The position numbers and the translations under genes were made by a program. Positions 22,412 to 42,995 of a DNA stretch of 64,000 nt are shown one piece after another. The notes under the pieces are model-generated. The model saw nothing but the letters and a program-made list of their open reading frames with translations. It made no database searches and was not told the DNA's origin. The stretch's first letter is position 1; every line of letters begins with the position of its first letter. This stretch comes from a virus (lineage: Duplodnaviria > Heunggongvirae > Uroviricota > Caudoviricetes). The stretch is taken from IMG/VR virus record IMGVR_UViG_3300046533_001163; one strand, 5' to 3'.

Positions 22412-22424
22412 TATGGGTAACTAA
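22412..22424 (-). promoter_or_regulatory. TTAGTTACCCATA motif variant upstream of DUF2828
   Basis: 12/13 match overlapping the upstream stop, 33 nt before the DUF2828 ATG. Confidence 0.7.
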
Positions 22425-22819
22425 GAATGATGAAGGTTGTTAAATTCTTCTTCGGTAATGTGCCTTGTAACTGGATAGGCGTTTACGTAAAGTGGTTGCC
22501 CAAGAAAATTTTGGTAGTAAGATTTATACCCTATGCCATTATAATACCATCGTTGAACACCGCCACACGCAGAAGAATAAATAGCAGGCAAATCATCATC
22601 ACAATGAATTTGGCCTTCTTTGTTAAAATAAGTCTTTTCCACCGAGCATTTTTGCCAAACTACAATTCCATCACGAACGCAATAAGTCATTTCCCCTCTT
22701 TTAAACTTAATAAACTTAGATTTCTTGGCAAGAATCTCTGGCTTACTTTCCGCCTTTGCAAATGGCAAGAAAGAAAGCAATCCAGCAGGAATGAATGCAA
22801 GGAAATTACGTCGCAGCAT
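22421..22819 (-). CDS. Tat-leader HRxDGPA-repeat family protein (single degenerate repeat)
   Basis: MLRRNFLAFIPAGLLSFLPFAKA leader; HCDDDLPAIY...RWYYNG. Confidence 0.65.
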   Translation of the reverse strand: MLRRNFLAFIPAGLLSFLPFAKAESKPEILAKKSKFIKFKRGEMTYCVRDGIVVWQKCSVEKTYFNKEGQIHCDDDLPAIYSSACGGVQRWYYNGIGYKSYYQNFLGQPLYVNAYPVTRHITEEEFNNLHHS

Positions 22820-22841
22820 TTGATTGTTCCTGAAAATTAAC

Positions 22842-22883
22842 GAGATTCATTTTTGCGTAAAGCTTTGTTGCTGTTAGAATCTC
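22842..22883 (-). ncRNA. CAGCAA-loop hairpin element, copy 2
   Basis: GAGATTC-TAACAGCAACAAAGCTTTACGCAAAAAT-GAATCTC; perfect 7-bp stem with compensatory changes; starts 3 nt after the tRNA. Confidence 0.6.
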
Positions 22884-22886
22884 AAA

Positions 22887-22961
22887 TGGCTGTGGTCAGA
22901 TTTGAACTGACGATCTCAAGGTTATGGGCCTCGCGGGGACTCCAGGCTCCCCCACACAGCG
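22887..22961 (-). tRNA. tRNA-Met(CAT), initiator-like, CCA not encoded
   Basis: Full cloverleaf: acceptor G2-G7/C66-C71 with C1xC72 mismatch, D-stem GGGG/CCCC, anticodon stem CGAGG/CCTTG with loop CCCATAA, T-arm GTCAG-TTCAAAT-CTGAC, A73. Confidence 0.88.
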
Positions 22962-22997
22962 GCATGCTTACTTTTTTTCTAAAAAGTAAGAAAAATC

Positions 22998-23046
22998 AAG
23001 ATGCATCTTCTTCACCAATGGAATTTTGGATTGCTGCAAGCACCTT
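22998..23046 (-). ncRNA. CAGCAA-loop hairpin element, copy 3
   Basis: AAGGTGC-TTGCAGCAATCCAAAATTCCATTGGTGAAGAAGAT-GCATCTT; 7-bp stem with one G.U. Confidence 0.65.
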
Positions 23047-23087
23047 TGTGAACACATATATAGCAAAAAAGTAGAAAAAAGTCAAGA

Positions 23088-23660
23088 CTAAATCGGCGGT
23101 CCAGAATTAGCGTAATAGTAACTCAAAGCCGCTTGGTAAGTAGTGCTCGCATCTTGATAGCGGGCCTGAGCCGTATCATAATCTGGTACAGCGGTGACGG
23201 TCCATAGGTCGGTGGCATTGTTAAAGTAAATTACTGCATCAGCATACTGAGGAGTATTCGGATACTGCGGAAACCACAGTCCATTACCGGCAATATAATT
23301 TCCATCGCCACGTAATTTATAATACTCTCCGAGATCCCAAAAAGTATCTCCGGTTTGAAAATATCCGTTGCCACTAGCGATTAAGTTATTATAAGTAGCC
23401 TTCATATCATCCGACCATCTAGTCGGGGCCGATGGCAATGCTGCCTTATCATTCAAGGCGTCTTGCCAGGCATAACCAGCCTCGCCTCTCGCTGCTGCAA
23501 CTGCCATTGATGCATTATTTGCAGCAGACAATGCCTGAGTTTGGGCTGTGGTCGGTTGATTCGGTTGCCCGCCACCCGGAGGACCGCCGCCATACTGAGC
23601 AAATGCGCTTGTCTGAGCCAACATCAAAACAACAAACGCCATCAGTTTTGTTTTCATCAT
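23088..23660 (-). CDS. Secreted Ala/Tyr/Gly-rich helical protein, paralog 1 (start re-called at 23660)
   Basis: Sec-type signal MMKTKLMAFVVLMLAQTSAFA, SD AAGGA; the track's longer start runs through hairpin copy 4. Confidence 0.65.
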   Translation of the reverse strand: MMKTKLMAFVVLMLAQTSAFAQYGGGPPGGGQPNQPTTAQTQALSAANNASMAVAAARGEAGYAWQDALNDKAALPSAPTRWSDDMKATYNNLIASGNGYFQTGDTFWDLGEYYKLRGDGNYIAGNGLWFPQYPNTPQYADAVIYFNNATDLWTVTAVPDYDTAQARYQDASTTYQAALSYYYANSGPPI

Positions 23661-23686
23661 TTTCCTTCTCAGGTTAGAATTTAAAA

Positions 23687-23755
23687 TAAAAAACAAAAGA
23701 CGCATCCTCTTCGCCAATGGAATTTTGGATTGCTGTAAGCATCTTTTGTTTTTTA
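23687..23755 (-). ncRNA. CAGCAA-loop hairpin element, copy 4
   Basis: TAAAAAACAAAAGATGC-TTACAGCAATCCAAAATTCCATTGGCGAAGAGGAT-GCGTCTTTTGTTTTTTA; 17-bp stem with one U.G. Confidence 0.7.
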
Positions 23756-23780
23756 GAAAATCATTTCAAATCTACGGCGA

Positions 23781-24302
23781 TTAGTTATAGCTATAAAAGT
23801 ACCAAGCGTACCAGTATGCCATATATGCGCTGGTATAATTGCCTTTAGCTGCTTGCCAGTAGCTTTTAGCATTATTGGTATTATTAACGAAATACCCACT
23901 GGCCAAATTAGCGTCCGCTTTACACGCCGCCCAAAGCTGGAAGTTATACTCGCTAACGGCTTGGTTGTACCAAGTAAGACCTGAATCGTACTCCGTTCCT
24001 GCATCTACATCATTAAAAACGCCGTCTACAACCAGAGAATCTCCCGTAGCGATATACCCGTTATAGGCATCAATTTGCCACTGCTGCCAACCACTTTTAA
24101 TTCCCGGAAGACCAGCCTTAAATTCGGTAGCTGCTGTGGCTTCGGCGGCGGAATCAGCCTCGGCCGTTTCGGCTTGTCCCTTCAAAATTTCAGCGGTAGT
24201 TTTTGCAACACCAGCATCGTACTGGTCATCCGCTACTACATAACTACACATTCCCAACGCCAAGACTAACGTTGCCAAAACTCCAGCCATTTTGTTCATC
24301 AT
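23781..24302 (-). CDS. Secreted Ala/Tyr/Gly-rich helical protein, paralog 2 (start re-called at 24302)
   Basis: Signal MMNKMAGVLATLVLALGMCSYVVA, SD AAGGAG; W...YN..IA.G...GD pattern shared with paralog 1. Confidence 0.65.
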   Translation of the reverse strand: MMNKMAGVLATLVLALGMCSYVVADDQYDAGVAKTTAEILKGQAETAEADSAAEATAATEFKAGLPGIKSGWQQWQIDAYNGYIATGDSLVVDGVFNDVDAGTEYDSGLTWYNQAVSEYNFQLWAACKADANLASGYFVNNTNNAKSYWQAAKGNYTSAYMAYWYAWYFYSYN

Positions 24303-24691
24303 CTCAATTCTCCTTGTGAAGTGGGTAAAATTTACGACCGTTTTTATAACAAAAAAGTAATCGGCTGTCAATAAGTCTAGGCAGATTTCTTGGCAGGACT
24401 TGAATCGTGCCATTTTATGATGGCTTTGACAGCAGCATTAATCATATCTTTTTTACTACTAAAATCTTTTTCCCAAAACATTCCGATGAAAAGTTTCCCG
24501 GGGGAATTCTTTTGAATTACATAGGCATTAAACGGGTTGACATCTGCTTTGAGCGATTCATGCTCAATGCTACCGATCAAAACGCTGTCGCGGTAAACCT
24601 GTTCAATATAAGATGTGCCTTCTTGCGTCCCTTGAACATTAACGGCTGGCATGGCGTTTTCCTTTGAGGAAAGATGGTTTTCTAACTCGCT

Positions 24692-24704
24692 TATGGATAA
24701 CTAA
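24692..24704 (-). promoter_or_regulatory. TTAGTTATCCATA motif copy
   Basis: Exact copy, 39 nt before ATG at 24652. Confidence 0.75.
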
Positions 24705-24707
24705 ATT

Positions 24708-25310
24708 TTAAACAAAACCTCGCGCCTTGCACGGTGCAATCAATTCGCGAAATGATTCAAGATCACACACAAAAAACCTATGACCTTTATAAAACCACTG
24801 TGTAAACGCCGGAAACTTATCGTCTTCTATTGCAGGCCCATCTTCACGATGTCTGTTGCCATTGAAATACCATTCTCTTACTCCACATGGGTCAACAATC
24901 GCTGGCCCATCTTCACGATGACATATGCCATTTTTGAGCCACTCTTTCCTGCCGTCAGAATGAATAACGGCCGGGCCATTATCTCGGTGGCACACTCCAT
25001 TTTTAAACCATGAACAATAACCGTCACGCCTCATTATTGCAGGCAAATCACCGTCTCTGTGAATTTGTCCTTTTTTATTATAAAAAGTAATTTCGCCCCT
25101 AACGGTGCTTTCTATGGTCTTATAAACCACTCCATCTACCGCACATAAAATTAAATCGCCAAGCATAACTGAATCTGGAATAGCAGAAACAGCATCAAGC
25201 GCAACATTCATTTCGCCAAATTCAACGTGAGCATCTTCTGCCTTAACCTTAAAAGACAGCATGCCAATCAACGCCGAGGGTATAAAGGAAAGTAGAGTTC
25301 TTCTCTTCAT
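24708..25310 (-). CDS. Tat-leader HRxDGPA-repeat protein
   Basis: MKRRTLLSFIPSALIGMLSFKVKA; 4 repeats HRDGDLPA/HRDNGPA/HREDGPA/HREDGPA. Confidence 0.75.
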   Translation of the reverse strand: MKRRTLLSFIPSALIGMLSFKVKAEDAHVEFGEMNVALDAVSAIPDSVMLGDLILCAVDGVVYKTIESTVRGEITFYNKKGQIHRDGDLPAIMRRDGYCSWFKNGVCHRDNGPAVIHSDGRKEWLKNGICHREDGPAIVDPCGVREWYFNGNRHREDGPAIEDDKFPAFTQWFYKGHRFFVCDLESFRELIAPCKARGFV

Positions 25311-25686
25311 GATTTTGCTCCTTATGCCACTTCGGCAGATTTTTTGACGATCTTGTTCTTGCGACCAGACTGCTTGAAACTCTTGGACGCCTTCAACTGT
25401 TTTTCAAGTTGCTTGGCAAAAGCAAATACAGACGGAGGCAACTTGCCGCCTACCGTACTATTCGGATCGTCATAGCCGTCAAAGGCTATGCTCATTAATT
25501 CCAGCGCTTCTGGATGATCGGCCAAATCAAGAATTAAATTTGTAAGTAATTCTGCTTGTTCAGAATTCATTACACAGGTAATGTCAAAGCCAACGCTTAC
25601 GTTAAATGCAGGAGTTCTCATTTTCTATCCTCTAGTTGCCTTATGAAGTTTGCGTGAAGTTATGTTAAGATGGGTTATATAAGCAC

Positions 25687-25699
25687 TATGGATAACTAA
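25687..25699 (-). promoter_or_regulatory. TTAGTTATCCATA motif copy
   Basis: Exact copy, 65 nt before ATG at 25621. Confidence 0.7.
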
Positions 25700-25737
25700 G
25701 AAAATTGATGCATCATAGATGCGACAATTGCTTCATG

Positions 25738-26364
25738 TTACTTAACATCTTGCAAATAACGCTGAGTTTCAGCATCAATTCTTCCTTGTCTTGGAGTATT
25801 ATCTTTATGATCCCATAACCATTTATGAGCAGGAATTCTAAAATCATACTGTTCTTCATTTATTCCATATCCATAAAGATACCATGCCCGCCAGCCGGTT
25901 GTTGGGCTTGTAATGGCCGGGCCATCTTCACGATGACGCTCGCCGTTCTGATACCAAAATTCATCGCCACAGCTATAATAATGAGCGGGTCCACCATCAC
26001 GATGCCTCTCGCCATTTTTATACCACACAAACTCGCCCCATCCAAATTCAATAGCCGGACCATCTTCCCTGTGTCGTATTCCGTTAATAAACCATTCTTT
26101 GCTACCTTGCCAACCCTCTACCGCCGGACCATCATTTCTGTGAAGTTCTCCGGAAGAATTATAGTAACGCTTTGTACCGTAACGGTCAGTGCGACAACCA
26201 CTCCCCCATCCAGGTGGTATTTCAGAATGAGTTAATTTAATAACGAAATTATCCGCCTTAGTAATTGATTCCGGCGCAACTTCAGTTGCTTTAGTTTCTT
26301 TCACAGAGAAGAAACCGGCAAACAGGCCAGCAGGAATTAATCCAAGGAAATTTCTACGCTTCAT
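25738..26364 (-). CDS. Tat-leader HRxDGPA-repeat protein
   Basis: MKRRNFLGLIPAGLFAGFFSVKETKA; 4 repeats. Confidence 0.75.
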   Translation of the reverse strand: MKRRNFLGLIPAGLFAGFFSVKETKATEVAPESITKADNFVIKLTHSEIPPGWGSGCRTDRYGTKRYYNSSGELHRNDGPAVEGWQGSKEWFINGIRHREDGPAIEFGWGEFVWYKNGERHRDGGPAHYYSCGDEFWYQNGERHREDGPAITSPTTGWRAWYLYGYGINEEQYDFRIPAHKWLWDHKDNTPRQGRIDAETQRYLQDVK

Positions 26365-26847
26365 TTTAGCACCAAAGCCAGGTCAAATGTCCGAAATCAA
26401 CTACTGGATCGGCTCCAGCTTCTTGTAGTTTTTTAATATCGTCCGCAAATGTAGCTCTAAAAATTTCAATTTCATCTGTCATATTAATGTCTGTCAAAGA
26501 CTTGTATTTGATATCATAATTTCCAACATTACGAGCACTCCATGCATTCTTTTTATTGTAAAGAGCAAAAGATACCTTATTGCGATTATCTTCTACAAAA
26601 TAGAATTTATCTACTCCTAGCAATTCATTAAAATTAATAAGCACCATTTCTTCAACGGCAATAGCAATAATTAAACTACCGCAACTCCGACAAAATTTAC
26701 CAACATCTTCTCCCCAATGATGAAGAGATGGTTGTTTTTTATACTTATCGCACACTGCATTATTACAAGCATTAATTTGCCTTAGTGATGGACGCACCAC
26801 CTGTTTAAGCTTAATATATGGACCAACGTATGAAAAGTAATCAGCGC

Positions 26848-27234
26848 TCATTTCATCTCCTTCAGTTTTTCTGCTGCCGCTTGATCAAATGAATAATAAT
26901 TACAAGTTAATTCTTCTCCTGCCTTGATATCTCTTGCAGCAATTCCTAGTATGGAATCAAACGAATAAAGAATATTAGGATCATCTGAATGATTGCAGAA
27001 CTTATCATTATCTCCCGGAAGATAATAAACGTCATCATGTAAAAATGCATATGCTCTTACATGATCCGAAGCCGCAGGCGGGACAAACTCCGTATCCAAC
27101 TCAATTTTAGGAATCATATTATCAAACTTAGTATCTAATTTAGATACAACTGTATCCTTAGGAATATCATGAACCGCAAACAATCCAAGTCCATGAATTT
27201 TGGATGCGGCTATATGCGTATCAACTAACAGCAT
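26848..27234 (-). CDS. SET-domain protein (putative lysine methyltransferase)
   Basis: SKIHGLGLFA..DI; FCNHSDDPN; AARDIKAGEELTCNY. Confidence 0.88.
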   Translation of the reverse strand: MLLVDTHIAASKIHGLGLFAVHDIPKDTVVSKLDTKFDNMIPKIELDTEFVPPAASDHVRAYAFLHDDVYYLPGDNDKFCNHSDDPNILYSFDSILGIAARDIKAGEELTCNYYSFDQAAAEKLKEMK

Positions 27235-27745
27235 TATTGTAATTCCTTTTTAAGGAGTTCGGCAACATCATATAAATCAGGTATTTCCATGCCGTCTTTT
27301 ACCTGAACCGTATGTACTGCGATATAATAATTAACATTTTGAGTGTACCAGATATTATGGTCTGGACTTTCAGCTTCCATTAAATGTTCGTCTGATAACT
27401 CTACGCCAGTATTCTCTTTAATAAATGCAAAAGCATCTTTTAATTTAATAAAGAATCTAATGGCATGACCTTCAACCCCGTTGATCGTCCGTGGTGAATA
27501 CAATGCGCCATAAATATTCATGGTGATTTCGCCTTTACTTCTTTTGCCTGTACTTCGGCCCAATACATCTGACTATTAGTGCTCCAAGACTTTAGCTCAG
27601 AACTACTTGAATTTATATCATACGATGAAATATCAACATCTGTATTTTGATTTATAAAATCCAAAGCATCCTGCAAATCTTCAAACAACCCTGTATCCAT
27701 TGGACCATCATGAATCTGACCATATTGGGCCATAAGAACAATCAT
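27234..27745 (-). CDS. Two tandem paralogous hypothetical proteins (27518-27745 and about 27234-27521)
   Basis: LFEDLQDALDFINQNTDV resembles FFIKLKDAFAFIKENTGV. Confidence 0.45.
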
Positions 27746-28148
27746 GGAACACTTTCAAAGTAAGTGGGGTTAATCGGATGATATGAAGTAACCAGTCGTC
27801 TTAAGTTTCTTAAAATACGATCTATGTCGGGCTGGGAGCCGCCGGCTTTTTGTATGTTTGCTCCGATGATATCTGTTATCTGATCGATACTAAAGCCATA
27901 ACTGTACAAAATCCGGCAGTCGCTCTCAACATTTGCCAAAAAACGCTTAGTCTTGCGTTCGTCAAGTTTGTTTTTAATCCAAGAAATCATCTATTTATTT
28001 CCGTGTTATTGCCAATGCTAGTGCTATGAACACTCCAAGTCCAGCGCCCCAATATGCCATTCCAAATAAATCGCCAAATACACTAAACATAGAAACACAT
28101 CCCAGTAAAACTGCTAAATTTACAATTAATTTGTCGTCGTTGCTCATT

Positions 28149-28472
28149 TTAGAAATCCGTAGGGATAGTAGAAATACTTGCTAGCCTATTCTCAATATCT
28201 GCTAGTAGATGTTTTTTGAATACCTTAACAATTTGAAGAAAATCACTTTTATTAAACTGTTGAGCTACATTAACTTTCTGTCCATGTAGCGTATTTCCAT
28301 TATTAACAAAATATAAATACCAATACATTGCAGAAGTAGGCTTGTATATTTTAAAACTTTTGCACACGCTAGAATACATTGCGCATGCGGTAGACGAAAT
28401 CTTTGCAGTTTCGTCTACCTCAAACCCAACGCTTTTTAAAAATTCAATTTCATTTTCCATAAAACCCTTCAA
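28149..28472 (-). CDS. Small paralog family A member
   Basis: MENEIEFLKSVGF...IPTDF. Confidence 0.55.
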   Translation of the reverse strand: MKGFMENEIEFLKSVGFEVDETAKISSTACAMYSSVCKSFKIYKPTSAMYWYLYFVNNGNTLHGQKVNVAQQFNKSDFLQIVKVFKKHLLADIENRLASISTIPTDF

Positions 28473-28758
28473 TCGTCAAACTTAATAAGGTAATCGCCGG
28501 CCTTCAGCTTACCTCTGAAACACAGGTCGTTCAACAAGTCCTCAAAAATATCACGAACATTATCCATTTCTTCGCCCTTTGCCTGAAGCTCAGCCACAAT
28601 AGCATCGTCTAATTTCTCTGACGAAACAGACTCCTCTATCATGTTATCGTCTTGCATAATCATATATGGAATATTAAAATCTACTCCATAAACTTCTTCA
28701 AAAAGTCTGCTCAAATTACAGGCATCGTATCTGATGAGCTTGGCCATTTTGGGTTCCT

Positions 28759-29061
28759 TTATCTTGGGATTAGAGTAATCAGACCGATTAAATCATCAGT
28801 AAATTCTAACAAATCAATAATTATTTGTTTAACGATTGGGGAAAATTCATTTCTTAAACTGGCAATCGGCAACTCACGCTTGAAATCTCTCATAAGTGCT
28901 GCATGTTTAAACCGCAAAACCCATCTATGATAGCTGCCGTCATCCAACTTCCAAGTATGGATGTTTATATTTTTACATGCTCCACTCTGAAAAGACTCAA
29001 ATATTCCCTCGGAATTATCAACCATCCCAATTTCTTTTAAATATAAAATGTCGTCTTCCAT
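28759..29061 (-). CDS. Small paralog family A member
   Basis: MEDDILYLKEIGM...LIPR. Confidence 0.55.
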   Translation of the reverse strand: MEDDILYLKEIGMVDNSEGIFESFQSGACKNINIHTWKLDDGSYHRWVLRFKHAALMRDFKRELPIASLRNEFSPIVKQIIIDLLEFTDDLIGLITLIPR

Positions 29062-29064
29062 GAG

Positions 29065-29886
29065 TCAAACCTTATGCACTTTATTTTCGTATAGGTAGTA
29101 TACAGGAACTGGGAACTTCTGTCTAGACAGAAATTGATGAATTTCGTCCAAAGCATACCTGATTGAAATATGGTACAGGAACAAAGCATCAATCCTTTTA
29201 TTTTTAATAACTTCCATTACACCATCAAAAGACGAATGAACATCGTATTTGATATCGTTTTTGTTTAAAAACGTACATTCATGGCAGAAAATACCACCGT
29301 CATACTCACCGTACTTGTCCAACGGAACCGTATCGCCTGAATACGTAAGCAATCCATGCTTGTAATCATTCGTAATCGGCGTTCCAGACTGCTTAAGTCT
29401 AATGATTTCGTCTACAGGAGCACAGCTATATTCTTCCTTTAACTTTCTGCGAACCTCGAATAACTGAAATCCAAGCGTAAGCGCGCCTTCAATATGCCTG
29501 CCTGGGAAACAATATACATATAGGTTTCTTCCTACTTCAACAACCTGATGTGCATCTACGGCAATCCACTCAATCTGGAATTGCGTATTATTGATTTCCT
29601 GCTCAAGATAAACCTTCATCTTAATAACACCCAAACTGCCCTTGGGATAAATAATTCTAAGAGGCTTATTGTTGTGGCCCTTACCAAATTCTCTTGCGTG
29701 AAAGAAACTTGGAAGACCAGATATATGATCTAAGTGACCATGAGACAGCAGAATCGTTTCAACAGCGAAAATGCGTTCTTTAAGATTAAATGCGCACCCT
29801 TCGCCGCAATCAAAGAGGATACGGCTTGGCTGATGAAAAAGCCACGTAGCATAGCCAGCCAATGAGCAACCTTCAAGATTCAGCAT
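29065..29886 (-). CDS. rnz: RNase Z-like metallo-beta-lactamase (tRNA 3' endonuclease, short form)
   Basis: LFDCGEG, LSHGHLDHISG (HxHxDH), YSGDT, HECTF, H, LYHIS.RY. Confidence 0.82.
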   Translation of the reverse strand: MLNLEGCSLAGYATWLFHQPSRILFDCGEGCAFNLKERIFAVETILLSHGHLDHISGLPSFFHAREFGKGHNNKPLRIIYPKGSLGVIKMKVYLEQEINNTQFQIEWIAVDAHQVVEVGRNLYVYCFPGRHIEGALTLGFQLFEVRRKLKEEYSCAPVDEIIRLKQSGTPITNDYKHGLLTYSGDTVPLDKYGEYDGGIFCHECTFLNKNDIKYDVHSSFDGVMEVIKNKRIDALFLYHISIRYALDEIHQFLSRQKFPVPVYYLYENKVHKV

Positions 29887-30833
29887 TTGTTTTTATGGAT
29901 AACTATTTTGTTAGTTTTTAAATCCATGCTCATTAAGGATGTGCATGGACCAACTATTTTCACTTTAGGATTATATACAATGCCTTTGCATTGTGTATAT
30001 AAAAGCTTATCGTTCTCCCAATATTCCTTAACACCATTACTCCACTCTACTGCCGGACCACCCACTCTATGCTGCAATCCATGTTTATGCCATGCCTTAT
30101 ATCCGCCCCTCATAATTACGGCAGGGCCGTCTTCTCGGTGTAAATTACCATGAAAATACCATTCTTTCGTTCCATTGGTGTATTCGCAAGCCGGACCGGC
30201 TGCTCTATGTGGTTTATTATTAAAATACCAAATATTAGTTCCGTTTTCTTCCTCAATCGCCGGACCATCCTCACGATGAAGCATTCCGAGCTGCATCCAC
30301 CTTTTTTGTCCGGATGCATATATTATGGCTGGACCTCCTATCCGATGACACTGCCCATGATTCATCCAAGTAGTAGAAGATGGATTGATACGAGCAGGCC
30401 CATCTTCCCGATGGTATCTGCCATCTTCATCAAACCAAGACTCTTCATCATAATGTCCGCTTAACTTAAAATACCTTTTCTTTCCATTTATAAAACCGAT
30501 TTTAATATCTTGACGACTTGAATCAGAATATTCTACATACTCCATATATTCTTTTTGTTCAGGCAATCCAAGCTTCTCTACATTAATGCCGCAAGTATAG
30601 ATGAAATTTATAAGTTTATTTCTAAAGAAAGCCGAATCCTTAATATCAAACTGTTCTTCGGCAGATTTCATAAACTCTTCATCGCACTCCTGTTTTTGAG
30701 TAAAAGCATAAACATTCTTAATATAAGAAATATAAAGCTTATCCTTCTTCGTGAAAGATTCCTTATCCACTCCTGTAGAAAGGAATGAAAGAAAGCCGGT
30801 CGGCAACAGTGAGAGGAAACTTCTTCGTAGCAT
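29880..30833 (-). CDS. Tat-leader HRxDGPA-repeat protein (start re-called at MLRRSFL)
   Basis: MLRRSFLSLLPTGFLSFL; 6 repeats (HREDGPA, HRIGGPA, HREDGPA, HRAAGPA, HREDGPA, HRVGGPA). Confidence 0.78.
   Translation of the reverse strand: MLRRSFLSLLPTGFLSFLSTGVDKESFTKKDKLYISYIKNVYAFTQKQECDEEFMKSAEEQFDIKDSAFFRNKLINFIYTCGINVEKLGLPEQKEYMEYVEYSDSSRQDIKIGFINGKKRYFKLSGHYDEESWFDEDGRYHREDGPARINPSSTTWMNHGQCHRIGGPAIIYASGQKRWMQLGMLHREDGPAIEEENGTNIWYFNNKPHRAAGPACEYTNGTKEWYFHGNLHREDGPAVIMRGGYKAWHKHGLQHRVGGPAVEWSNGVKEYWENDKLLYTQCKGIVYNPKVKIVGPCTSLMSMDLKTNKIVIHKNKC
29894..29906 (-). promoter_or_regulatory. ATAGTTATCCATA motif copy
   Basis: Within the 3' end of the upstream gene, 7 nt before the RNase Z ATG. 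Confidence 0.7.
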
Positions 30834-31004
30834 GATTAGCCTTTGTCTAGAATCCCGCAAGCATTAGATTCATAACCACAACATAAAAATCATTGTTAGC
30901 AGGTTGACAATCTGGATTGTCCGGACGAGCAAATGGATTATCCCAATCGCGCACGATCAATGTGCAGTCTGCACCAGTAATCGGTTCGCCAAAAAGTATG
31001 ATGC

Positions 31005-31904
31005 TCATGCGGGGACTTCGCTGGTTTTTCTTTTTAACAAAGCATGAAACAAAAAAGCCGTCCTATTACTAATAGACTTTCTTGCTTCCTTGCTCATAAC
31101 AATTTCGCCTTCGGCCTCCCTGGATACATCTTCCAACATAGCTTTGACTACATCTGCTGTTCCAGAAACCCCTATATCCTGGGGCAGCTTATCAAGCACA
31201 TGACGCAATCTTTCCTCTACTACCCATTCTTCCGCTATAGCTCTTGCGTCATCAAGAACTTGAACATCGGCATCATTTACTTCACGAGGAGTTTTAGTTT
31301 CCATAAACTCTTTGCGCTTATGCTTACAAATAATTCTACCGCCATTATTAAGAGTGCATTCCACGATGGGTCGTAAGACAACTCCCTCTCTGATATGATT
31401 GTCTCCCATGCCATTTTTAATAGCCTGAGTAGACGGCCTATCGCGTTCCGCGTCTATAGCTTCAAGAGTAGCCGGAATCTTCGCATAATCAACAAAATCT
31501 AATCCTAGTTTGCTACAAACATCATGAGCGTTAACAACAGACAGCCAAACTTCATCGTGTTGGCCATCGGCAGTGAAGGAAACCTTAACGTCAAATCCAG
31601 CAAACCTAAGATGCGGCCCATACCAAGCAGACATGCCCATCAGCTTTCCGCCATATGCTTCCCCAAAAACAGTACAGTCTCGGTCGGGAAACATTTCCAA
31701 AAACTTAGCGAGCAAGGTTGGCTGGTCAAATAATTTTAAGAAATTAACATGATTCGCACCACCAGAAGAAAAATGAATTTTCTTTTCAGCGAATTTCCAA
31801 GATAAATGACTCGAAGTCCCGTGAATTTTTTCGAGTGAAAATAATTCCTTAAACATAAGGACGGTTGTGTCCTTATAAAGGTTAGAAATATGCATGAACC
31901 CCAT
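31005..31904 (-). CDS. RNA ligase, Rnl2 family
   Basis: LEKIHGTSS (motif I), VFGEAYG, GFDVKV, REGVVLRP, CKHKRKEF, plus a C-terminal helical domain. Confidence 0.85.
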   Translation of the reverse strand: MGFMHISNLYKDTTVLMFKELFSLEKIHGTSSHLSWKFAEKKIHFSSGGANHVNFLKLFDQPTLLAKFLEMFPDRDCTVFGEAYGGKLMGMSAWYGPHLRFAGFDVKVSFTADGQHDEVWLSVVNAHDVCSKLGLDFVDYAKIPATLEAIDAERDRPSTQAIKNGMGDNHIREGVVLRPIVECTLNNGGRIICKHKRKEFMETKTPREVNDADVQVLDDARAIAEEWVVEERLRHVLDKLPQDIGVSGTADVVKAMLEDVSREAEGEIVMSKEARKSISNRTAFLFHALLKRKTSEVPA

Positions 31905-33027: not shown

Positions 33028-33343
33028 TGCCAAACTCAGAATCATCTTTGTCATCGGGACCATAGGTATTTCTAAACTTGCATAATTTAGTAATCACTTT
33101 TGCACACGACATATAGGCCAATGCCGTTAGAACAATTATCCACAAACAAGCAGAAGGAATGAAAGTAATAGGAGAAATAATCCAAAGAAAAATCAACATC
33201 CCCCGACGCTTAAGGCATTCTTCATTCTTGTCTATAAAGTAATTATAGAAATACAGCATTCCTAACAACAGATAGGAAATGATGACGTATTTCATCACAA
33301 AATCGGCACTAATGTACATGATTGTTCCTTTAGGGTGATGCTT

Positions 33344-33356
33344 TATGGATAACTAT
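33344..33356 (-). promoter_or_regulatory. ATAGTTATCCATA motif copy
   Basis: 12/13 match, 24 nt before ATG at 33319. Confidence 0.7.
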
Positions 33357-33566
33357 TATTGCTTGGAATGCTCAAAATGCTTATCGTGTGATTCAAAGCA
33401 ATGAAAAACGTAAGGTAGATTTGTATTTTCATTTAATTGATCGAAATGAATCTCGTTGAGATTTTCCAGTCTGATTCTTCGCATGATAGGCTACATTCAT
33501 CTTGATGTTCGCATTCTTTGCTTAATTTTTAAAAGCCGTCCAGTTTTTAGACTAGCTTACGTTGTT

Positions 33567-33833
33567 TTAGATTAGCTCAACTTCTATCGGCTGAACTTCG
33601 ATTCTATTTTCAAAATCAGCCATAAACCTTCTAAGAACTCTGGGTGTCACGAATTGCTTTTCGTCTATCTGAATATAAAATCCACCAGCGAAAATCTTAG
33701 TCCCTTTCGGAACTACGTCCTTAATTGCCAAGGCAGTAGGACAAGTACTGGTCCCTCTTCTGCTGCCTTTAGCGATATGTTTTTCTGTGATGGAGAATTT
33801 CATGCTTGTCGCCATGCCCGAAAATGAATCCAA
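33567..33833 (-). CDS. Hypothetical protein, paralog of 20339-20632
   Basis: ITEKHIAKG...CPTALAI. Confidence 0.5.
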   Translation of the reverse strand: MDSFSGMATSMKFSITEKHIAKGSRRGTSTCPTALAIKDVVPKGTKIFAGGFYIQIDEKQFVTPRVLRRFMADFENRIEVQPIEVELI

Positions 33834-34027
33834 CTAGCCATTCTAAAAATGGCATACGGCAGGATAAACGGAAACGTAACAGGCGAAAGAATAAAAAATC
33901 TAGCCCATTGATCTTCATTTTTGGCACAGCCACTTCTGTAGGCCGAAAGCCAAATTAAGCCGCATACAATGTAAGAAATAACAAAGTAGTATGGATCGCA
34001 GTAGACCTCAATTTTCGGCATCATGAT

Positions 34028-34396
34028 TTACTCCTTATCTCTCAAGGCTTCTACAAGGCATTTTGCTGTTGCTTGATTAGTGGCGCATGGCAAATTAGAG
34101 ATATCCACGATTCTTAAAAAAGCGCTTACGTCATGTTCGTGAGGCTGAGGCGACATATGGTCCCGGAAAAAAAATACAGCATCTAGCTCTTTACGACTAG
34201 CCATTGCAGCCAAAACAATATCCCCTCCCAATGGACCATGCTCCACTTTTTCACAGCTAATACCATATCGGACTAAAACATCGCCGGTGCTCCTAGTTGC
34301 AATAAGTTGATGCTTTGCAAAAAATGGACTGTGAAACATAACAAATTGCAACAATGCCTCTTTCATTCCATCATGAGCAACAACTGCGATTTTCAT
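34028..34396 (-). CDS. mgsA: Methylglyoxal synthase (start re-called at MKIAVVAHD)
   Basis: IAVVAHD.MK, LIATRSTG, GPLGGD, FFFRD...PHEHDV..FLR..DI.N.PCATN.ATA. Confidence 0.92.
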   Translation of the reverse strand: MKIAVVAHDGMKEALLQFVMFHSPFFAKHQLIATRSTGDVLVRYGISCEKVEHGPLGGDIVLAAMASRKELDAVFFFRDHMSPQPHEHDVSAFLRIVDISNLPCATNQATAKCLVEALRDKE

Positions 34397-34914
34397 ATCC
34401 CTTCTCCGAAATGAATTTGCTGCGCAATTAAATTTTTTCTTCCCTCGTTTCGCAAATCCATCCACATACAACCTACAACATTTTTGCCGAACCATTCACC
34501 ATTAATAAATGCAGCTCCCCAAAACAAGCCTCTTCCACATTTTTGAATATTCTTTACTCTATTTGTACAATCTTCGATAATTATGGAATCGCCGGTTGCT
34601 TCCAGCCATTCATTTAAGTGATGGTGTTGACTTAATTTTAATCTCATCCCTAATTTCATATTCCATAAATCTACAGCGCCCATCGGCTCAACAACCATTT
34701 TGTCCGCATTGCGTTTGGCTACAAACTTAACGGCCATTGGCGAACGCTGTGCAACTATCTCTTTTTTAATATTTTCGTCAGCGAAACGAAGCCACTGAAA
34801 CAAATGCTCATTCGTTCTGAAAGTGATGCCTTCATGAACAATCGGGAAGCCAGACATATTCCCCAACCAACCATTGGGAAGCTTGGATTTCGTAAATGTG
34901 GTGAAGGTTGGCAT
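34393..34914 (-). CDS. NADAR (YbiA-like) ADP-ribosyl/N-glycosidase
   Basis: WLGNM, F.T.EHLFQ..RF, LK..QH, L.ATGD..IIE, FWG, G.N.VG...M.LR. Confidence 0.85.
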   Translation of the reverse strand: MPTFTTFTKSKLPNGWLGNMSGFPIVHEGITFRTNEHLFQWLRFADENIKKEIVAQRSPMAVKFVAKRNADKMVVEPMGAVDLWNMKLGMRLKLSQHHHLNEWLEATGDSIIIEDCTNRVKNIQKCGRGLFWGAAFINGEWFGKNVVGCMWMDLRNEGRKNLIAQQIHFGEGI

Positions 34915-34921
34915 GGATTCC

Positions 34922-34934
34922 TATGGATAACTAA
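34922..34934 (-). promoter_or_regulatory. TTAGTTATCCATA motif copy
   Basis: Exact copy, 7 nt before the NADAR ATG. Confidence 0.75.
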
Positions 34935-36031
34935 TTATTTCTTAGCAGTAGGAATTTCAATCAGCCGAACGCTGTCCCACGAATCAGGAACAAACCAAGA
35001 AATGAAAAATCGCTTGTTGTTGATGTGATATGTTGCGATTTCCTGATTTTTCTCAGCCACCTTTCCAAGAATACTGGACGCGGCAGGAGAAGTTGGATCA
35101 ACTTTACTTAAATCAGAGCGAAGCTGTTCAATAGCGGCTTGTTCGCCCGTAAAATTAATCTGTTCCACACCGCCTATTATACAGGCAAAAAACAATACAA
35201 GGCATATAACACAAGTGAAAAGAATTTCGCCTTCTGTGAAGTCTTTCATGGTTTCACTTTCTGATTGATTGGTCTATGATTGTTTGGATGAATTTATATA
35301 AGCAAATACAAAAACCAGCAAACCAAATCATGGCTATAATACCCTCCAGACAAAACCATCCCATCTCTTCTGCTAAAATAAAACTCATAACTTTTACCTT
35401 TCCTTTACCGGAGTATCTTTGACCTTGCTGATTTCCAAGTCAAGCAAATCCGCAAGCTTCCTTAAATGATCCGATGACATTATGGCCCCAGACAACTGGA
35501 ATGTTGCCGAATTAGTGTAGGAACACAAGGTTAATTCTTGCGTAATAAAAACATCACGGTCACCGTCTATCAGCGGAAGAGTCTCGTGAATATCGGTAGT
35601 TAAAATTAACTGTTCCCCCCCGTTTGATGTTTTATTAAAGGCATAAGACAATCTTTTTTTTACTACTGATGGCATTTTTTACCTTTCGCTCCAAGGTGAT
35701 GGATGAACACAATCATTGCAACCGGCGCAATAAACGCCATTTTTATTGTTCCCGCCAAAATAACCGCAATCATCAAACTGAAGATTAATCTTCCCGCAAT
35801 GACCGCAAGGCGTTAGATTCGCATCATATTCGCACGCTCTAACTAAATAATATATCTCGCCATTAACTGCATAATCTCCAACATATCCTAATAAAAAATC
35901 TGGACTTACATTTGTGTTAAAGTTTTTTTCTACACATTGAATTGAGCGTTCTCTAATTAAGTTCCTAAGCTGATATACTGTCATCCCCCAATACCTAGCA
36001 ATAGAATCAAAGCATTTCTTATCTTTTTTAC

Positions 36032-36823
36032 TTAACTTATTGAAGTGCATATGAATTCCCTACGCAATTCTAGAACTACATCTTTGACTTCTTGACCATT
36101 GATAATAATTAATTGCTTTCTGAAAAACTCAACTGCTGCACCAATCGCTGGCCCTACGCGGTCAATTAATATCTTGTCTAAAATTGAAGACTTAATCTGT
36201 TCTTTAATTTGCTCTTTTGCTATACTTGTTTTCGGAATAAACTGCTCTAAAAAAGTTCTTTCGTTCTTTAATCTTATCAGATTATATCTACCCAAATATT
36301 TTCTCGGCACTAATGATGCTTCTCTATTTAAGCCTATATGCTTTTTCACAACTTCAATAACGACTTCATCTGTAATTGGATGTATATTTTGTTGCTGGCA
36401 ATCCGATAATATCAACCTAAGTAATCCAAGACAACTCGCCCTATGCATCATTGCGTCTTGTATTATAATTCTTATCTTTTCTATAAGAGATAAGTCTTTT
36501 CCTATACACTCCAATAATTGCCCGCCGAATGATCGTAAATTTTTAATATAGTAGCTTAACTTCTCGTCTTCCTCTTCCGCCCTACGTGAGTTACACTTTC
36601 TACAAGATAATACTGTTCTAGGCTCCCATGTCGGATTTGGCTTTAAGCGCTTGGCAAAGTTTAATCTTGAATTCAAGTGGTCAATAGTAGCGTCCTGCTC
36701 TTGTCTATTAATTTCTTTTGCGAGACTTGGCCTTAATGTGGTTGGCTTTTCACACCAATGACAACGCGGATCTAGTCGGTGTAAGCGCTCTAAACGCCTG
36801 CGGAGTCGGCGACTTTGGTGCAT
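36032..36823 (-). CDS. HNH-like nuclease domain fused to a GatB/YqeY-like domain
   Basis: CHWC...ATIDHL...SCRKCN; then LSLIEKI...DAM...LRLILSD...ITDEVVIEVVKK...E..FLEQFIPK. Confidence 0.55.
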   Translation of the reverse strand: MHQSRRLRRRLERLHRLDPRCHWCEKPTTLRPSLAKEINRQEQDATIDHLNSRLNFAKRLKPNPTWEPRTVLSCRKCNSRRAEEEDEKLSYYIKNLRSFGGQLLECIGKDLSLIEKIRIIIQDAMMHRASCLGLLRLILSDCQQQNIHPITDEVVIEVVKKHIGLNREASLVPRKYLGRYNLIRLKNERTFLEQFIPKTSIAKEQIKEQIKSSILDKILIDRVGPAIGAAVEFFRKQLIIINGQEVKDVVLELRREFICTSIS

Positions 36824-37986
36824 TCTGCTGGTTCCGGTATATCAATGCTTTCATCCGTAAAATCTTCTATGTCAAAGTCAGCCTTCAACGCCTTGCCTCT
36901 TGATGACAACCATACTACCACATCTTTGTTATCTTGTGGATTTTTTTTAGTGTTATAAAACCTCATCCAAAATCTATCCTTGCCCATTCGCTCCATGTGA
37001 AACGAACATCTAGAAGCAGAATCAGATACAACAATTTCGTCTAAATCACCGTGCTTATCAAGACGGATTAATAGATTACCGACCCTTATTTCTTTTGTCA
37101 TTATTTTTCTTACCTTTAATTGGTTTTTTAACGGGCGGCTTTCTAGGGGCTGCCGGCCTTCTAGACCCACCATGAAACATATTAAATAAATCATTATAAG
37201 TCATATACGTTATTCCTTCTGACTGACGGGGAGCCTCAGCCTGCTGTACTCCTCCTTCGCCAGACTCGCGCTCTTCTGCTGCTTGCATGCCCCGCTCAAA
37301 ATCGGAAGCTTGCTGTGCTGGAGCTGATCTACGTTGGTCGGTCTTCTTTGGTGTATTCCCATTAATCATGACATTTACATACTCTGTTGATAACTTCTTA
37401 ACGTCAATTACGCGAGTGTCAACCGAAAACACCCAAGGCTCATTGTAGTATTGCCCTCCACCATTAACATGCAATCGCACTGCAATGAAAGGCAGTTCAA
37501 TCGCCTTAATTTCCATTACAGATCCATATAATCCAGTATCGTTGTTGGTAGCAGTAATAAACATGCCAACGTCTAAATCGTCGGCGCGAGTGATGAACGG
37601 ACTTGACATTATTCTCTCCTCAGGAGCAATGATTCTACCTTGCACTTCAAGGCATCAACCTCTTCCACATGCTCAAGATGATACTTCTTCATCAAGTGAG
37701 AAATCTGGTTGACGGCCGCAGTGTTATGGCAGTTTCTTTCAAGAAATTCCAATGCAACTAAGGCAAGGGAAACTTCTTTTCTATTGAACTTCATTATTAG
37801 TGCCTGAGTTCCTCAAAGGAAATATAAAGTGCAGCAATAATGCAGGAAATAGCCGGGATAAGACATTCGGTATTTCCACTGCTAACCATAATCATACATC
37901 TCGTAAACGAGATGCCTAAAAAAACTAAAAGTAAAGTGCGGAAAAAGGCATGCGAAAGTCGTAGAAAGGTTTTCATGATGGTTCCT

Positions 37987-37999
37987 TATGGATAACTAA
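37987..37999 (-). promoter_or_regulatory. TTAGTTATCCATA motif copy
   Basis: Exact copy in the 3' end of the upstream gene, 10 nt before ATG at 37976. Confidence 0.75.
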
Positions 38000-40521
38000 G
38001 TTTCGAAAGGATGTTAAAATTTGATCATATTCATACGTAGCCGAATTTCTTTCACTGTTTACCCATTCCGTAACCCACTGAATGGCCTTCGCCATATTCT
38101 CTTCTGTGATTGCGTCATAAGTCACCCAGCCATACTCGTCATCTATCGTATAGCCAAACTCATGCCCATAATACGTTCTGCAAAATTTAAACTCAGCAAT
38201 ACTGTTATGGTGATACAAGCCTTTTTGATGCTTATCAGGAGTAAACCCCCACTTAGTTAAGAAATCATGATCTGCTTGTGAAATGCCTTCTGGTAGATTC
38301 ATGATTTCGCATTCCACAAAGAATTTTCAATGCAGGCTAATTCTTCGACGGCTCTTTTATGATGTAGAAGAATTTCATTAGTATCATAAAGGCAGGATTT
38401 CATGATTTGCCTGATTGCCCAAGCTACGGTGCGACTGGTAATTTTTCTTATAAAAGTATTTACTTTGGGAAATTCTGGTGAATAATAATCAAGACAAAAG
38501 TATTCTTCTTCCCAATGCTGGCACGCAAAATGCATGCCTTTAATAGTTTTATGTCTGATGTTTATAACCTTAATGTCAGCATCAGGCAGGCCGACCTCAT
38601 CATTCTTATAAAGATAAATTGGATCACCAAATCCAAACTTATGCAGAATAGCAATTTGTCTGCTGGTAAGCTTCTTCACTGTATCTCTACCCCGTTACGG
38701 AGCCACAAATTCCACTGAATCATTTCTAATCGTCTTTTGCGGATACGACGATATTCTTCTCTGGTAATCAGATCATCGCTTTTCATAAAACGATGAACAT
38801 AACAATCTCGTAGCACGGTTCTATCCGCTATATCAAGACGGGTGTCATTTAATAAATCAACAACTTCTTCATACTCTTGCTCTGTTATCTCACCTGAATC
38901 ATTTAACTTGATTGCTGCTAAAAAAGCAAGAAAGCACAAAATTAAAAATGCCGAAATTATATAACAAGCCTTATTTGAATCAGACATTTTTGTTTCCTTA
39001 AGCGACAAAGAATCCGAAAAAGTCAATAGCATCAGACAAAACAAGAGTTTGCTTTGGAATCATTTCATCCAGATACTCTTTCGCTTGCTTTTTAATTAAT
39101 GAAAATCCTTTTTCCACATTCTCTTTAGTCAGTTCATGAAAATGATCGGGCCAGCCGTCTGGCCCAAGCTTAATACCGCCAGCTATGGAAAGCCAAACTG
39201 ACCAGCCAGTTGCAGATGTATGCCTAATTAAAAGACCATCAAGACTCTTGTGCCTGGATTCATCGCTTAACCATCCGATGGGACGCTCAATGCGATTAAA
39301 GCCGAAGTCCGATAATACCTGCTGCTCTTGATCGGTCAAAATCCTTTCATTAACCTTCATCATTTTTCACCCATGCCCTAGAAGCAAAACGGAAATAAGG
39401 CCACATCCTACCATGATAAGAAGAAGAAAAACGCGAATAAAAAATTCTCTTTTCAACTGCTTGCTCATGATTGATCCCCGTTGCTAGTGGAAAAACAAAC
39501 TTGCAACGGTTATTGTATCAGTTTTTTACAGTAAAAGTCAAGAGTAGGTTGGAACTATCTTGAGTTGTTTCATGATGCTCTTCAGAATGAGTTATCGGTT
39601 GCAAAGATTCGGCCCAAGCGATCAGTTCTTTTTCTTGTTTCTTAGCAATCTTATATTGCGTTTTCATATCTTCTTTATAAGCGACTTTGTGTCCAGGATA
39701 AGTCATTACAGCTAAAACCGGGTAACTGCAAGCAAAAATTTTACCGAATGTAATCCAATTTTCATAACTTGCTTCAGCAATAAAGCAAGCGACAAAAGGC
39801 ATTCCTAATATGCATACTGTCCCCCACCAGAATAATGGGAACAGCAAGGCGCAGATTATCGGCGGGAAAGGTTTCACGATCAAATTATCCTAGGAAGTCT
39901 ACCGGCGATGAGCCTTTCGATCCAAATCCTCAACAGAAACCAAATCCCCTTTGAGCGTAGATTTAGGCTCTTCGTGGCCATTGAAGAATCGGATCATGCC
40001 TTCGTATTCTCGAACGATAACCCATTCTTCCGAGGGCCATGTAAAACGATACCACCAGTAACGAACTACGCCAGTCATCATATCCCTTTTTCATCGTGGA
40101 AATTTGATTATGGCTGCACAGATCGCCAATGGCATTGTTTCTTCTTCTGATAAAACTTCAGTACCACCATCATCATAATTATTTATTACTCTCCATCCAT
40201 CAAATTTGGAACTAACAGCAAGATATGCCGCTCTTTTTGTAGCCGCAATCCAATCAACAATAATCTTCTGTGCAGCATTTGCATCCGACGAAAACTTAGG
40301 CAAAGCATCAAGTGCGGCTTGCTCTGATCGGAAGAATTTGCCTCCTAACGGAAGATTATCCCAGCTAGTACTTTTGATAGGCTTATTATCCTTCCAAGCC
40401 CAATAAGGATAATCTTGTGGCCACATTGAACGTGCAGGATTATATTCAACACATTCCAACCGCCATCCAATGGCTTTGGCAACTTCACGATCAATTTCAG
40501 GTGATGCAATCATGTTGGTCC

Positions 40522-40534
40522 TATGGATAACTAT
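40522..40534 (-). promoter_or_regulatory. ATAGTTATCCATA motif copy
   Basis: Directly after the NAMPT stop, 8 nt before ATG at 40513; flank identical to the copy at 45388. Confidence 0.75.
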
Positions 40535-41979
40535 TAAAGATAGCTCTTAACTCTTTCTCTGATTTCAGAGAGAGTATATTCTTTAGTTATCTTACCATCG
40601 CGGAACACGGTTTCCAGATATCCGCCAGCCGCTTCTTCCTTAGTGGCGTTATCCTTAGTAAAGAATTGACCATTCTCATCCTTGTCAAGTCGCATCAATC
40701 CCTTATGCGATTTTTTCTTGTGGTCTGTAATTGGGTCTTTTTCAATATCTCTAGATTCACCATTAACAACAACATTGGTTGCCTTGATGGCAAATCCGAA
40801 AGTGTCTCTGGAGTGATTGCGGAGGATACCGCCGACGCCGATAGTGAGGTTAGATGCGGCATAACCCATGTTCTTGAGACGAGACAGCGTTCGCTCATAT
40901 CGCTCATAGTACATTCCATCACCGTAAATCAATCCAATTTTAGGATTGAGAATTCGGTATCCCTTCTTATTAATAGTGCTGCCAAATTTCATGTCAAGAA
41001 GACGGATAGCTCCAAGGAATTCAGGTGTGCCGAACTTGGCTGACGGATCGCCACAGATAATATATTCTGGATTTCCACTATCGGGACGGAATACAACTTT
41101 ACCGTCTCTGGAGAGGATGCGTGATTTAAGTTTTTCGGCGAAATCGGTTAATACAGTCCAGACGTTGTAGGTGTCTGAAACCACGGAACAGATTCCAGTC
41201 GGATAAAGATCAAGCATGTGATTAAATGCAGCCAATTCATCTTCTCTTCCGAAACTACACATTACAGAATGTTCAGATGCATTAGCGCTTAACATAATTG
41301 GACTATTTAAATCAGCATTATAATACCTGTTTAAAAAATCAAACGATAACATCGTATCACTTCCAAGGTGATTAATCAAATGTGCTCCACCAGAAACATA
41401 TGCGCTTTCTTCGGTATCGCAACCACGATATCCAAAGTCTACTGCGGTTAAATCCTTAAGAAAATACATGTCCTCATCAACCGTCTCGTTAAAGTATTGC
41501 TCAATTAAAGTTCTATACTTAAAACTATGAGTCGCTACAGTAGTTAAAAACCAAATCTTAAGCAGCAAGCTTTCCACAAATCCTACTGCCCAATGGAAAT
41601 CATCTTTTGTATTAGCGACAGTCATTAAGGCATTTCTAATACTTATCACAGAGCCTTCTACAGGCGCTTTAATTTCCAAAGGCCAGTAACCTAACTTACA
41701 CAAATCTCTAATTTTATTTTCAACAGTTCTACTGTTGCTTCCAAGAATATGTTTTCTAATAAAAAGAAACTCTTCTCCCATTTCTGGAGTAATAGGTTTC
41801 ACAAGATACTTTTTAAGGTAATACTGAAGACCAAAAAACAATGTCCTATCCCACAGACGATCATTGTTTCTGGCAGTTAGATAAGAATAAACGTATGATG
41901 TTCCTGGGCAATATTGCTCTAGATGACCTGTCTTATAGATGTCAGTTCTTCGGAGAATGTTCTCTTCAAGTAGTTCCAT
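40534..41979 (-). CDS. nadV: Nicotinamide phosphoribosyltransferase family (NAMPT/NadV; possibly NARP1 Namat)
   Basis: TDIYKTGH, FFGLQYY, DFGYRG, SEHSVM, SVVSDTYN, RPDSG, IYGDG, GVGG, RDTFGFAIKAT, KDPITD..KKSHKG. Confidence 0.93.
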   Translation of the reverse strand: MELLEENILRRTDIYKTGHLEQYCPGTSYVYSYLTARNNDRLWDRTLFFGLQYYLKKYLVKPITPEMGEEFLFIRKHILGSNSRTVENKIRDLCKLGYWPLEIKAPVEGSVISIRNALMTVANTKDDFHWAVGFVESLLLKIWFLTTVATHSFKYRTLIEQYFNETVDEDMYFLKDLTAVDFGYRGCDTEESAYVSGGAHLINHLGSDTMLSFDFLNRYYNADLNSPIMLSANASEHSVMCSFGREDELAAFNHMLDLYPTGICSVVSDTYNVWTVLTDFAEKLKSRILSRDGKVVFRPDSGNPEYIICGDPSAKFGTPEFLGAIRLLDMKFGSTINKKGYRILNPKIGLIYGDGMYYERYERTLSRLKNMGYAASNLTIGVGGILRNHSRDTFGFAIKATNVVVNGESRDIEKDPITDHKKKSHKGLMRLDKDENGQFFTKDNATKEEAAGGYLETVFRDGKITKEYTLSEIRERVKSYL

Positions 41980-41991
41980 GATTTTTCCTTT

Positions 41992-42807
41992 TTAGGTTAG
42001 TGATTCAGCATTATACGGCCACTGCTTCTTATAATACTCTTCTTTGCTATAATATTTTCCATTAATATAATATTCACAATACCCGTTCATCTGATTTATA
42101 AAAGCAGGACCGTCCAAACGATGTAATACTCCATTCCGATACCACTGACTAATTTTTCCCTTAAGAACAGCAGGGCCAGCAAGCCTGTGTCGGCGGCCAT
42201 CAACCCACCACTCCATATCGCTATTCGGATAAATAATAGCAGGTCCATTTTCCCGATGCAACTGCATCTTGTTATTAGACCAAGTTTGAACTCCGTCAGA
42301 ATCAACATGAGGAGAAACTATTTTATTAAACTCTTCCTCGGTATACCTCTGCCCTCTTACTCCCCATATCTTAGTGCCGTTGGAGATTTCAATAGCTGGA
42401 CCGTCTAACCGATGCAGCATGTTATTCTGAAACCAATACTTATCTCCATTGGTGTAAATAATAGCTGGCCCACTTTCGCAGTGAAGATCGCCATTAGCCT
42501 TTGTATGGTAAATAGGGTTTTGTAACGGTAGAGCTAATTGCTTCTTGTATTGCCCCCATTCTTCGTCTCCTGCATAAACATAATCGTAAATTGATGTATC
42601 AACTCCATTTTCAAGCCTTTGCTCAACTTTTTTACAAACTTCTGCGCCTATACTCTCAATCTTTTTCCATGCTTCATCACCTAAAGCATAAGAATCTTTA
42701 TTAGGCAAAACAACAGGCTGCGCAACTTCCGCCTTCGCTTCATCCGCTCGGATGAACGGCAAAGCAAAAACAGCAGAGATTGATTTCAGGAAGCTTCTAC
42801 GGAACAT
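41992..42807 (-). CDS. Tat-leader HRxDGPA-repeat protein
   Basis: MFRRSFLKSISAVFALPFIRADEAKA; 5 repeats. Confidence 0.78.
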   Translation of the reverse strand: MFRRSFLKSISAVFALPFIRADEAKAEVAQPVVLPNKDSYALGDEAWKKIESIGAEVCKKVEQRLENGVDTSIYDYVYAGDEEWGQYKKQLALPLQNPIYHTKANGDLHCESGPAIIYTNGDKYWFQNNMLHRLDGPAIEISNGTKIWGVRGQRYTEEEFNKIVSPHVDSDGVQTWSNNKMQLHRENGPAIIYPNSDMEWWVDGRRHRLAGPAVLKGKISQWYRNGVLHRLDGPAFINQMNGYCEYYINGKYYSKEEYYKKQWPYNAESLT

Positions 42808-42995
42808 TTTTCTTGACCCTCGGTTTCTTTTCTTCCAGATCGCAAAGAGCTACCGTCATGTAATCGCCAAATCGGGACTCTACAACAGCTTCATCGCCTT
42901 CAATGCGAGTCAGCTTCACGAAATTACCATTGAAGTCATATTCTTTATTAATTTCATACTTTCTCTTTACTTTTAAATCAAATTTCATGATCGGC

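Follow-up and report, generated by a model that had tools for sequence, protein, structure and literature searches.

Twin-arginine leaders on HRxDGPA-repeat proteins of a T4-like megaphage that encodes TatA: candidate cargo for Tat export

Extra copies of the translocase subunit TatA are found both apart from their cargo genes and linked to them, as illustrated by TatE of Escherichia coli and the phoD-tatAd-tatCd genes of Bacillus subtilis. TatA permeabilises the membrane (PMC11178869). MORN repeats are protein-interaction modules with a groove that binds peptides (PMC7725318), and among the proteins noted in huge phages are membrane or surface proteins with a possible effect on infection by other phages (PMC7162821). 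A literature search with partial coverage found no paper on phage-encoded TatA, phage Tat cargo or their combination with repeats.

The stretch of DNA analysed here (the window; 64,000 nucleotides) corresponds to C1:335156-399155 of a 511,233-base virus record that has 127-base direct terminal repeats and is rated 100% complete. The virus is a T4-like megaphage with a T4 gp23-type capsid gene. The region is a minus-strand series of small accessory genes around repeat genes, beside which are encoded a nicotinamide phosphoribosyltransferase (NAMPT), a phosphoribosyltransferase, a metallo-beta-lactamase-fold protein and a DUF2828 protein. Six open reading frames of the window start with M-x-R-R-x-F/L-L followed by an uncharged run of 11-18 residues (Table 1). 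All six were recovered on the minus strand where the initial annotation had placed them, and its range of one to six HRxDGPA repeats per protein also held. The whole genome has 11 leader genes, five of them outside the window; eight of the 11 carry HRxDGPA repeats and nine fall within ~65 kb.

Table 1. Leader-bearing, repeat-encoding and neighbouring genes (window positions, unless a contig is named).
Location	Strand	Description
5959..6564	-	201-aa non-repeat protein: RR leader ending in lipobox-like IGGC (Cys22), weak DUF551-like domain
22421..22819	-	132-aa precursor: RR leader (22751-22819, AKA site), N-cap hairpin, one degenerate repeat (HCDDDLPA)
24708..25310	-	200-aa precursor: RR leader (25239-25310, VKA site), N-cap, 4 repeats
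25738..26364	-	208-aa precursor: RR leader (26287-26364, TKA site), 4 repeats; predicted MORN-like beta-hairpin sheet
29880..30833	-	317-aa precursor: RR leader without AxA site, ~120-aa N-terminal region, N-cap, 6 repeats
41992..42807	-	271-aa precursor: RRSFLK leader, AKA or IRA site, short h-region (11 uncharged), 5 repeats in two blocks
C1:144542, 314015, 323190, 324381, 412476 (stop ends)		Leader genes outside the window
L005:13477-14466		Non-repeat Tat-leader protein (329 aa); no match in Pfam, PHROG or NCBIfam
C1:144542-145006		Non-repeat Tat-leader protein (154 aa)
C1, three genes at 75-78 kb		Leaderless repeat genes, no hydrophobic N-terminus
C1, 251 kb		Leaderless repeat gene, Sec-type N-terminus
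C1, 324 kb		Leaderless repeat gene, weak hydrophobic N-terminus
C1:322166-322336 (L003:16167-16337)		tatA, 13 kb before the window
L003:6812-7525 (~C1 312.8-313.5 kb)		YccA/Bax inhibitor-1 family membrane protein, ~0.5 kb from leader-repeat gene 314015
23088-24413		Pair of Ala/Tyr-rich genes lying between two Tat genes, with Sec-type signal peptides; no family match
22991 and 23690		57-nt repeat (86% identical) downstream of each Ala/Tyr-rich gene
29065-29886		Metallo-beta-lactamase-fold gene, weak anti-Pycsar Apyc1 match, overlaps the end of 29880-30833
40534-44546		NAMPT and PRPP-synthetase-like genes on either side of the 41992 gene

The NAMPT and PRPP-synthetase-like pair resembles phage NAD-reconstitution genes. 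Close homologues of the YccA/Bax inhibitor-1 protein are encoded on phage-like contigs of ~600 kb; in two such contigs no leaders were found in the 20-kb flanks of the homologue.

The megaphage tatA gene lies 0.85 kb downstream of the leader-repeat gene 323190, on the same strand. No tatC was found in the complete 511-kb genome. The predicted protein passes PF02416 (36 bits, gathering cut-off 21); it scores 37.4 bits with TIGR01411 (cut-off 53.9) and 25.1 with the TatB model. In an alignment with its relatives, it keeps the polar Glu before the transmembrane helix, the FG hinge and an amphipathic helix with G and F-K-K. Read from its ATG, the protein has 56 residues and is short of the 5-6 that normally open a TatA; initiation at an in-frame ATT, six codons further upstream, would supply the typical M-F-G start. 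An assembly error at this start was considered and rejected, as the identical sequence is found in two other assemblies. Promoter and terminator scans near tatA gave chance-level results only. No match to the protein was found in 50,697 GenBank phage records or in PHROGs. Among its best 80 GTDB matches, 78 are from Planctomycetota, and a two-residue hinge is common to the phage protein and these Planctomycetota matches. An Atlas feature search instead returned TatA clusters in which Bacteroidota is the commonest taxon, but these have 1-4 members and scores under 0.9 and were given no weight against the Planctomycetota matches. The host is likely to be a member of the Planctomycetota, a call made with TatA matches picked by likeness and with no outgroup. 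Viral TatAs are scattered among those of Planctomycetota on a short, poorly resolved tree without an outgroup, with at least two changes forced, and this scattering suggests several captures.

Such a tatA is carried by 14 other distinct IMG/VR records. On L006, an unrelated contig encoding one of the leader-repeat proteins found outside this genome, tatA lies between two leader-repeat genes. At least one canonical leader gene is present in 11 of the 13 other tatA-bearing records read nearly whole (15 genes in ~1.15 Mb), whereas canonical leaders occur in just one record among the control loci, and tatA in none of 25 repeat-bearing control records; the control records come from other hosts, so that part of this leader enrichment could stem from a host lineage rich in Tat. 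A leader gene is found within 2.5 kb of tatA (a threshold chosen after looking at the data) in 5 of 12 records, the megaphage included (null 1.07, P 0.002). Around host tatA genes, by comparison, a leader gene lies within 3 kb at just 2 of 80 loci, and the tatA-leader link is therefore not inherited host gene order. None of the other tatA-bearing IMG/VR records read has HRxDGPA repeats, the cargo differing between phages, and a metagenome TatA scan yielded no further tatA-repeat locus. Relatives of the capsid protein on small fragments told nothing about tatA. A separate 105-kb IMG/VR record (G012) has both tatA and tatC (L140:7947-8666) among phage-like genes and possibly encodes a complete viral TatAC translocase; no canonical Tat leader was found in it.

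The alternative that survives best, itself rather improbable, is that the leaders are exported by the host Tat system while the phage TatA has a separate job, such as handling other cargo or weakening the membrane for lysis, its proximity to the repeat genes being incidental. With nine of 11 leader genes crowded into ~65 kb, proximity to tatA in a single genome is weak evidence, and in the other phages with tatA the cargo is unrelated. G020, a fragment of a related megaphage, has leader-repeat genes, and no tatA was found in its record; that record, however, is 43% complete. The flanking of tatA by leader-repeat genes on both sides in L006 and the linkage of tatA to leaders across records also argue against a separate job.

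The HRxDGPA repeat is 23 residues long (69-nt period), with fixed W, G, H-R and G-P-A positions and variable positions between them. Structure prediction, as proposed in the initial annotation, was carried out with AlphaFold2, which models the repeat block as stacked beta-hairpins (pLDDT ~90 or more over residues 61-140). The top Foldseek PDB matches are MORN1, MORN4 bound to myosin 3a and junctophilins (best E-value: 5e-4, TM ~0.33, rmsd 5-6 A), and the VIA Z reaches 7.8, a value that is not decisive alone. In the Atlas, the structure neighbours of the 24708 product are DUF6745 and YwqK/MORN_2 clusters (YwqK cluster TM 0.60). No solved-structure sequence relative was found for the 29880 product. 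In the predicted fold, the repeats build one MORN-like beta-sheet whose frame is fixed and whose faces vary. Because their consensus differs and no Pfam MORN model matches, they are MORN-like and not members of the MORN families (PF02493/PF07661); no Pfam or PHROG match of the repeat proteins reaches the cut-off. The proteins close to them in fold come from large phages and giant viruses and are uncharacterised. The wider HRxDGPA/HREDGPA family has weak DUF6745 matches and includes proteins of Agrobacterium phage Atu_ph07 and mimivirus (R871). Another phage has about 20 neighbouring leaderless HREDGPA-repeat genes (L137:1696-14772).

Every repeat protein had been said to carry a leader. This is true within the window, but genome-wide the figure is 8 of 13, the remaining five genes having no twin arginine (Table 1). 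The three leaderless repeat proteins at C1:74978-77848 are basic (pI 9.2-9.5), and, of the eight with a Tat leader, five are acidic (pI 5.7-6.0). A count of RR leaders among HRxDGPA proteins elsewhere, also proposed in the initial annotation, gave 3 of 261 proteins and 2 of 113 viral ORFs, the latter from 662 kb of repeat-selected viral loci. The leader share of the megaphage differs from that of other repeat proteins with a Fisher P of 3e-10, for which the paralogues are not independent observations.

Such a leaderless family could be read to mean that the leader serves just to tether the protein to the membrane or to dock it on TatC, with the repeat domain remaining on the cytoplasmic side like the rest of the family. 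The h-regions are short and the 29880 leader has no AxA site, as a tether would allow. This reading is nonetheless improbable: an AxA-type site, needless for a permanent tether, is present in seven of the eight leader-repeat proteins, and the phage encodes TatA. For the 29880 product itself, the missing AxA site means that it may stay membrane-anchored.

The anatomy of the leaders bears on the translocase that would receive them. The leader rule matches 10 of 683 called genes, or 11 with 22421, which is absent from the gene calls. As it matches none of 1572 internal methionines and an average of 0.145 genes in 200 shuffles (maximum 2), this count is not attributable to chance. All 11 leader genes have a twin arginine with hydrophobic residues at +2/+3 near the N-terminus. 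The pair is written with six different codon pairs and is never KR, RK or KK; RR retained through such synonymous change has therefore been selected at the protein level. The uncharged h-region following RR is 15-21 residues long in 10 of the 11 leaders and 11 residues long in 41992. The leaders have Gly/Pro-rich, moderately hydrophobic h-regions and basic c-regions. Pattern matching finds AxA-type cleavage sites in nine leaders, a lipobox-like site in one and none in 29880, and the sites of the window's repeat proteins are, as first described, mostly of the (A/V/T)KA type. By this anatomy the leaders look like Tat signals. A TATFIND-type rule passes seven of the 11, the failures being due to L or F before RR and, in 41992, also to the short h-region. 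The PF10518 profile has no match anywhere in the genome, and no NCBIfam Tat-signal model (TIGR01409 included) matched the six leader-bearing proteins scanned, at an E-value of 0.5. Such short models may be poorly suited to leaders whose n-region is very short.

The silence of the HMMs, together with the Sec-type N-terminus of one leaderless paralogue, is what would be seen if RR were the mere basic n-region of Sec signal peptides. That is very improbable given the invariant RR, the F/L at +2/+3, the character of the h- and c-regions and the linked tatA.

The leaders of 22421, 24708, 25738, 29880, 323190 and 314015 have in common an extra I-P-x-G-L-L pattern. Pairwise scores among these six are mostly 18-33, compared with a 95th percentile of 17 (maximum 20) against the leaders of other phages. 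Three leaders make up a 47-nt DNA repeat (64-79% identity), and an N-cap hairpin ahead of the first repeat is common to six leader-repeat proteins. On these comparisons five or six of the leaders are paralogous, and the shared pattern, scores, DNA repeat and hairpin read as one old leader-repeat fusion that later underwent duplication. In 41992, 324381 and 412476, the leader is not clearly nearer to the others than foreign leaders are. The DUF551-like protein (5959) had been described as bearing the same leader. An RR leader is indeed present, but its best scores against the other leaders (20-23) make a shared origin borderline, and the DUF551 match is under the Pfam cut-off (E-value: 0.0019). 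With a lipobox-like IGGC at Cys22 in place of AxA, this protein looks like a Tat lipoprotein. The suggestion that the leader is a portable module thus stands for the five or six paralogous leaders, but not for that of 41992, and the transfer to the DUF551-like protein is only borderline.

Leader-repeat genes were found in the megaphage, L006, L007, L180 and G020, the last of which has four such genes, whose leader and N-cap are of another type. This distribution suggests that the leader-repeat fusion arose more than once. A leader plus N-cap profile search, the output of which was dominated by multi-repeat proteins, added one new leader-repeat protein (P0214).

The proposed model for Tat export of the repeat proteins is as follows. 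The repeat family is normally leaderless and would fold in the cytoplasm; as Tat takes folded proteins, it would be an easy route for redirecting them. The leader would dock on host TatC, and the phage TatA would add a membrane-permeabilising subunit. Signal peptidase would then cut at AxA and free most of the cargo into the periplasm, with the 29880 product and the lipoprotein staying anchored. In the least certain step, the paralogues in the periplasm would form a set of protein binders for targets in the envelope; the likeliest of these would be receptors or entry machinery used by competing phages, or the host's own envelope defences. A binder family with a fixed frame and variable faces in the envelope would fit either phage exclusion or the neutralising of envelope defences.

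Export of the leader-bearing proteins is likely. That the leaders are working Tat signal peptides for which the phage supplies extra TatA has a somewhat better than even chance. Should export occur, a role in exclusion or counter-defence is plausible, at rather less than even chances. The fullest version, in which planctomycete phages repeatedly captured TatA for their own cargo and the megaphage stocks the periplasm with a diversifying library of MORN-like binders that act as a panel in superinfection exclusion or counter-defence, is tentative and on the whole unlikely. The initial annotation had proposed export of a diversified repeat family, which might serve superinfection exclusion or envelope remodelling; the export part of this proposal gains from the TatA encoded inside the cluster and from the tatA-leader link in unrelated phages, but not from the Tat-signal HMMs. 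Its other proposal, that the precursors (with a dominant-negative TatA) are decoys that jam host Tat export, is the weakest reading: many simultaneous leaders could saturate TatC, which is an established Tat property, and the TatA N-terminus may be short, but most leaders have cleavage-like sites, the cargo consists of small, foldable, diversified proteins, TatA retains the landmark residues of its family, and tatA with tatC in G012 fits export more than blockade. Export is favoured over jamming because the phage encodes TatA and the tatA-leader link recurs. If the export model is true, a virus adds to its host's translocase in order to bring folded effectors into the periplasm, a very large unnamed family of viral repeat proteins gains its first localisation clue, and phages of Planctomycetota can be recognised by a gene-based marker.

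Compared with known systems, the leaders resemble bacterial Tat signals (S/T-R-R-x-F-L-K; PF10518, TIGR01409) in their invariant RR, F/L-L at +2/+3, uncharged h-region, basic c-region and AxA or lipobox-like end. They differ in being phage-encoded, in their 2-3-residue n-region, in the L or F before RR in four of them and in having no HMM score. Like E. coli TatE and B. subtilis phoD-tatAd-tatCd, the phage TatA would be an extra copy within the TatA/TatE family (PF02416), but it is viral, has no accompanying tatC, is unmatched among GenBank phages and PHROGs, and has the Planctomycetota-type hinge. The repeats share a 23-residue length and a single beta-hairpin sheet with MORN proteins (MORN1, 6T68; MORN4-myosin 3a, 6JLE; junctophilins; YwqK/MORN_2), whereas their consensus is W-x3-G-x2-H-R-x-D-G-P-A and that of MORN is GxG...YEGEW. 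With the HRxDGPA/HREDGPA family of large phages and giant viruses, they have in common the repeat itself, its fold and multi-gene expansion; about 99% of that family elsewhere is without a Tat leader, in contrast to the majority that bear one in the megaphage.
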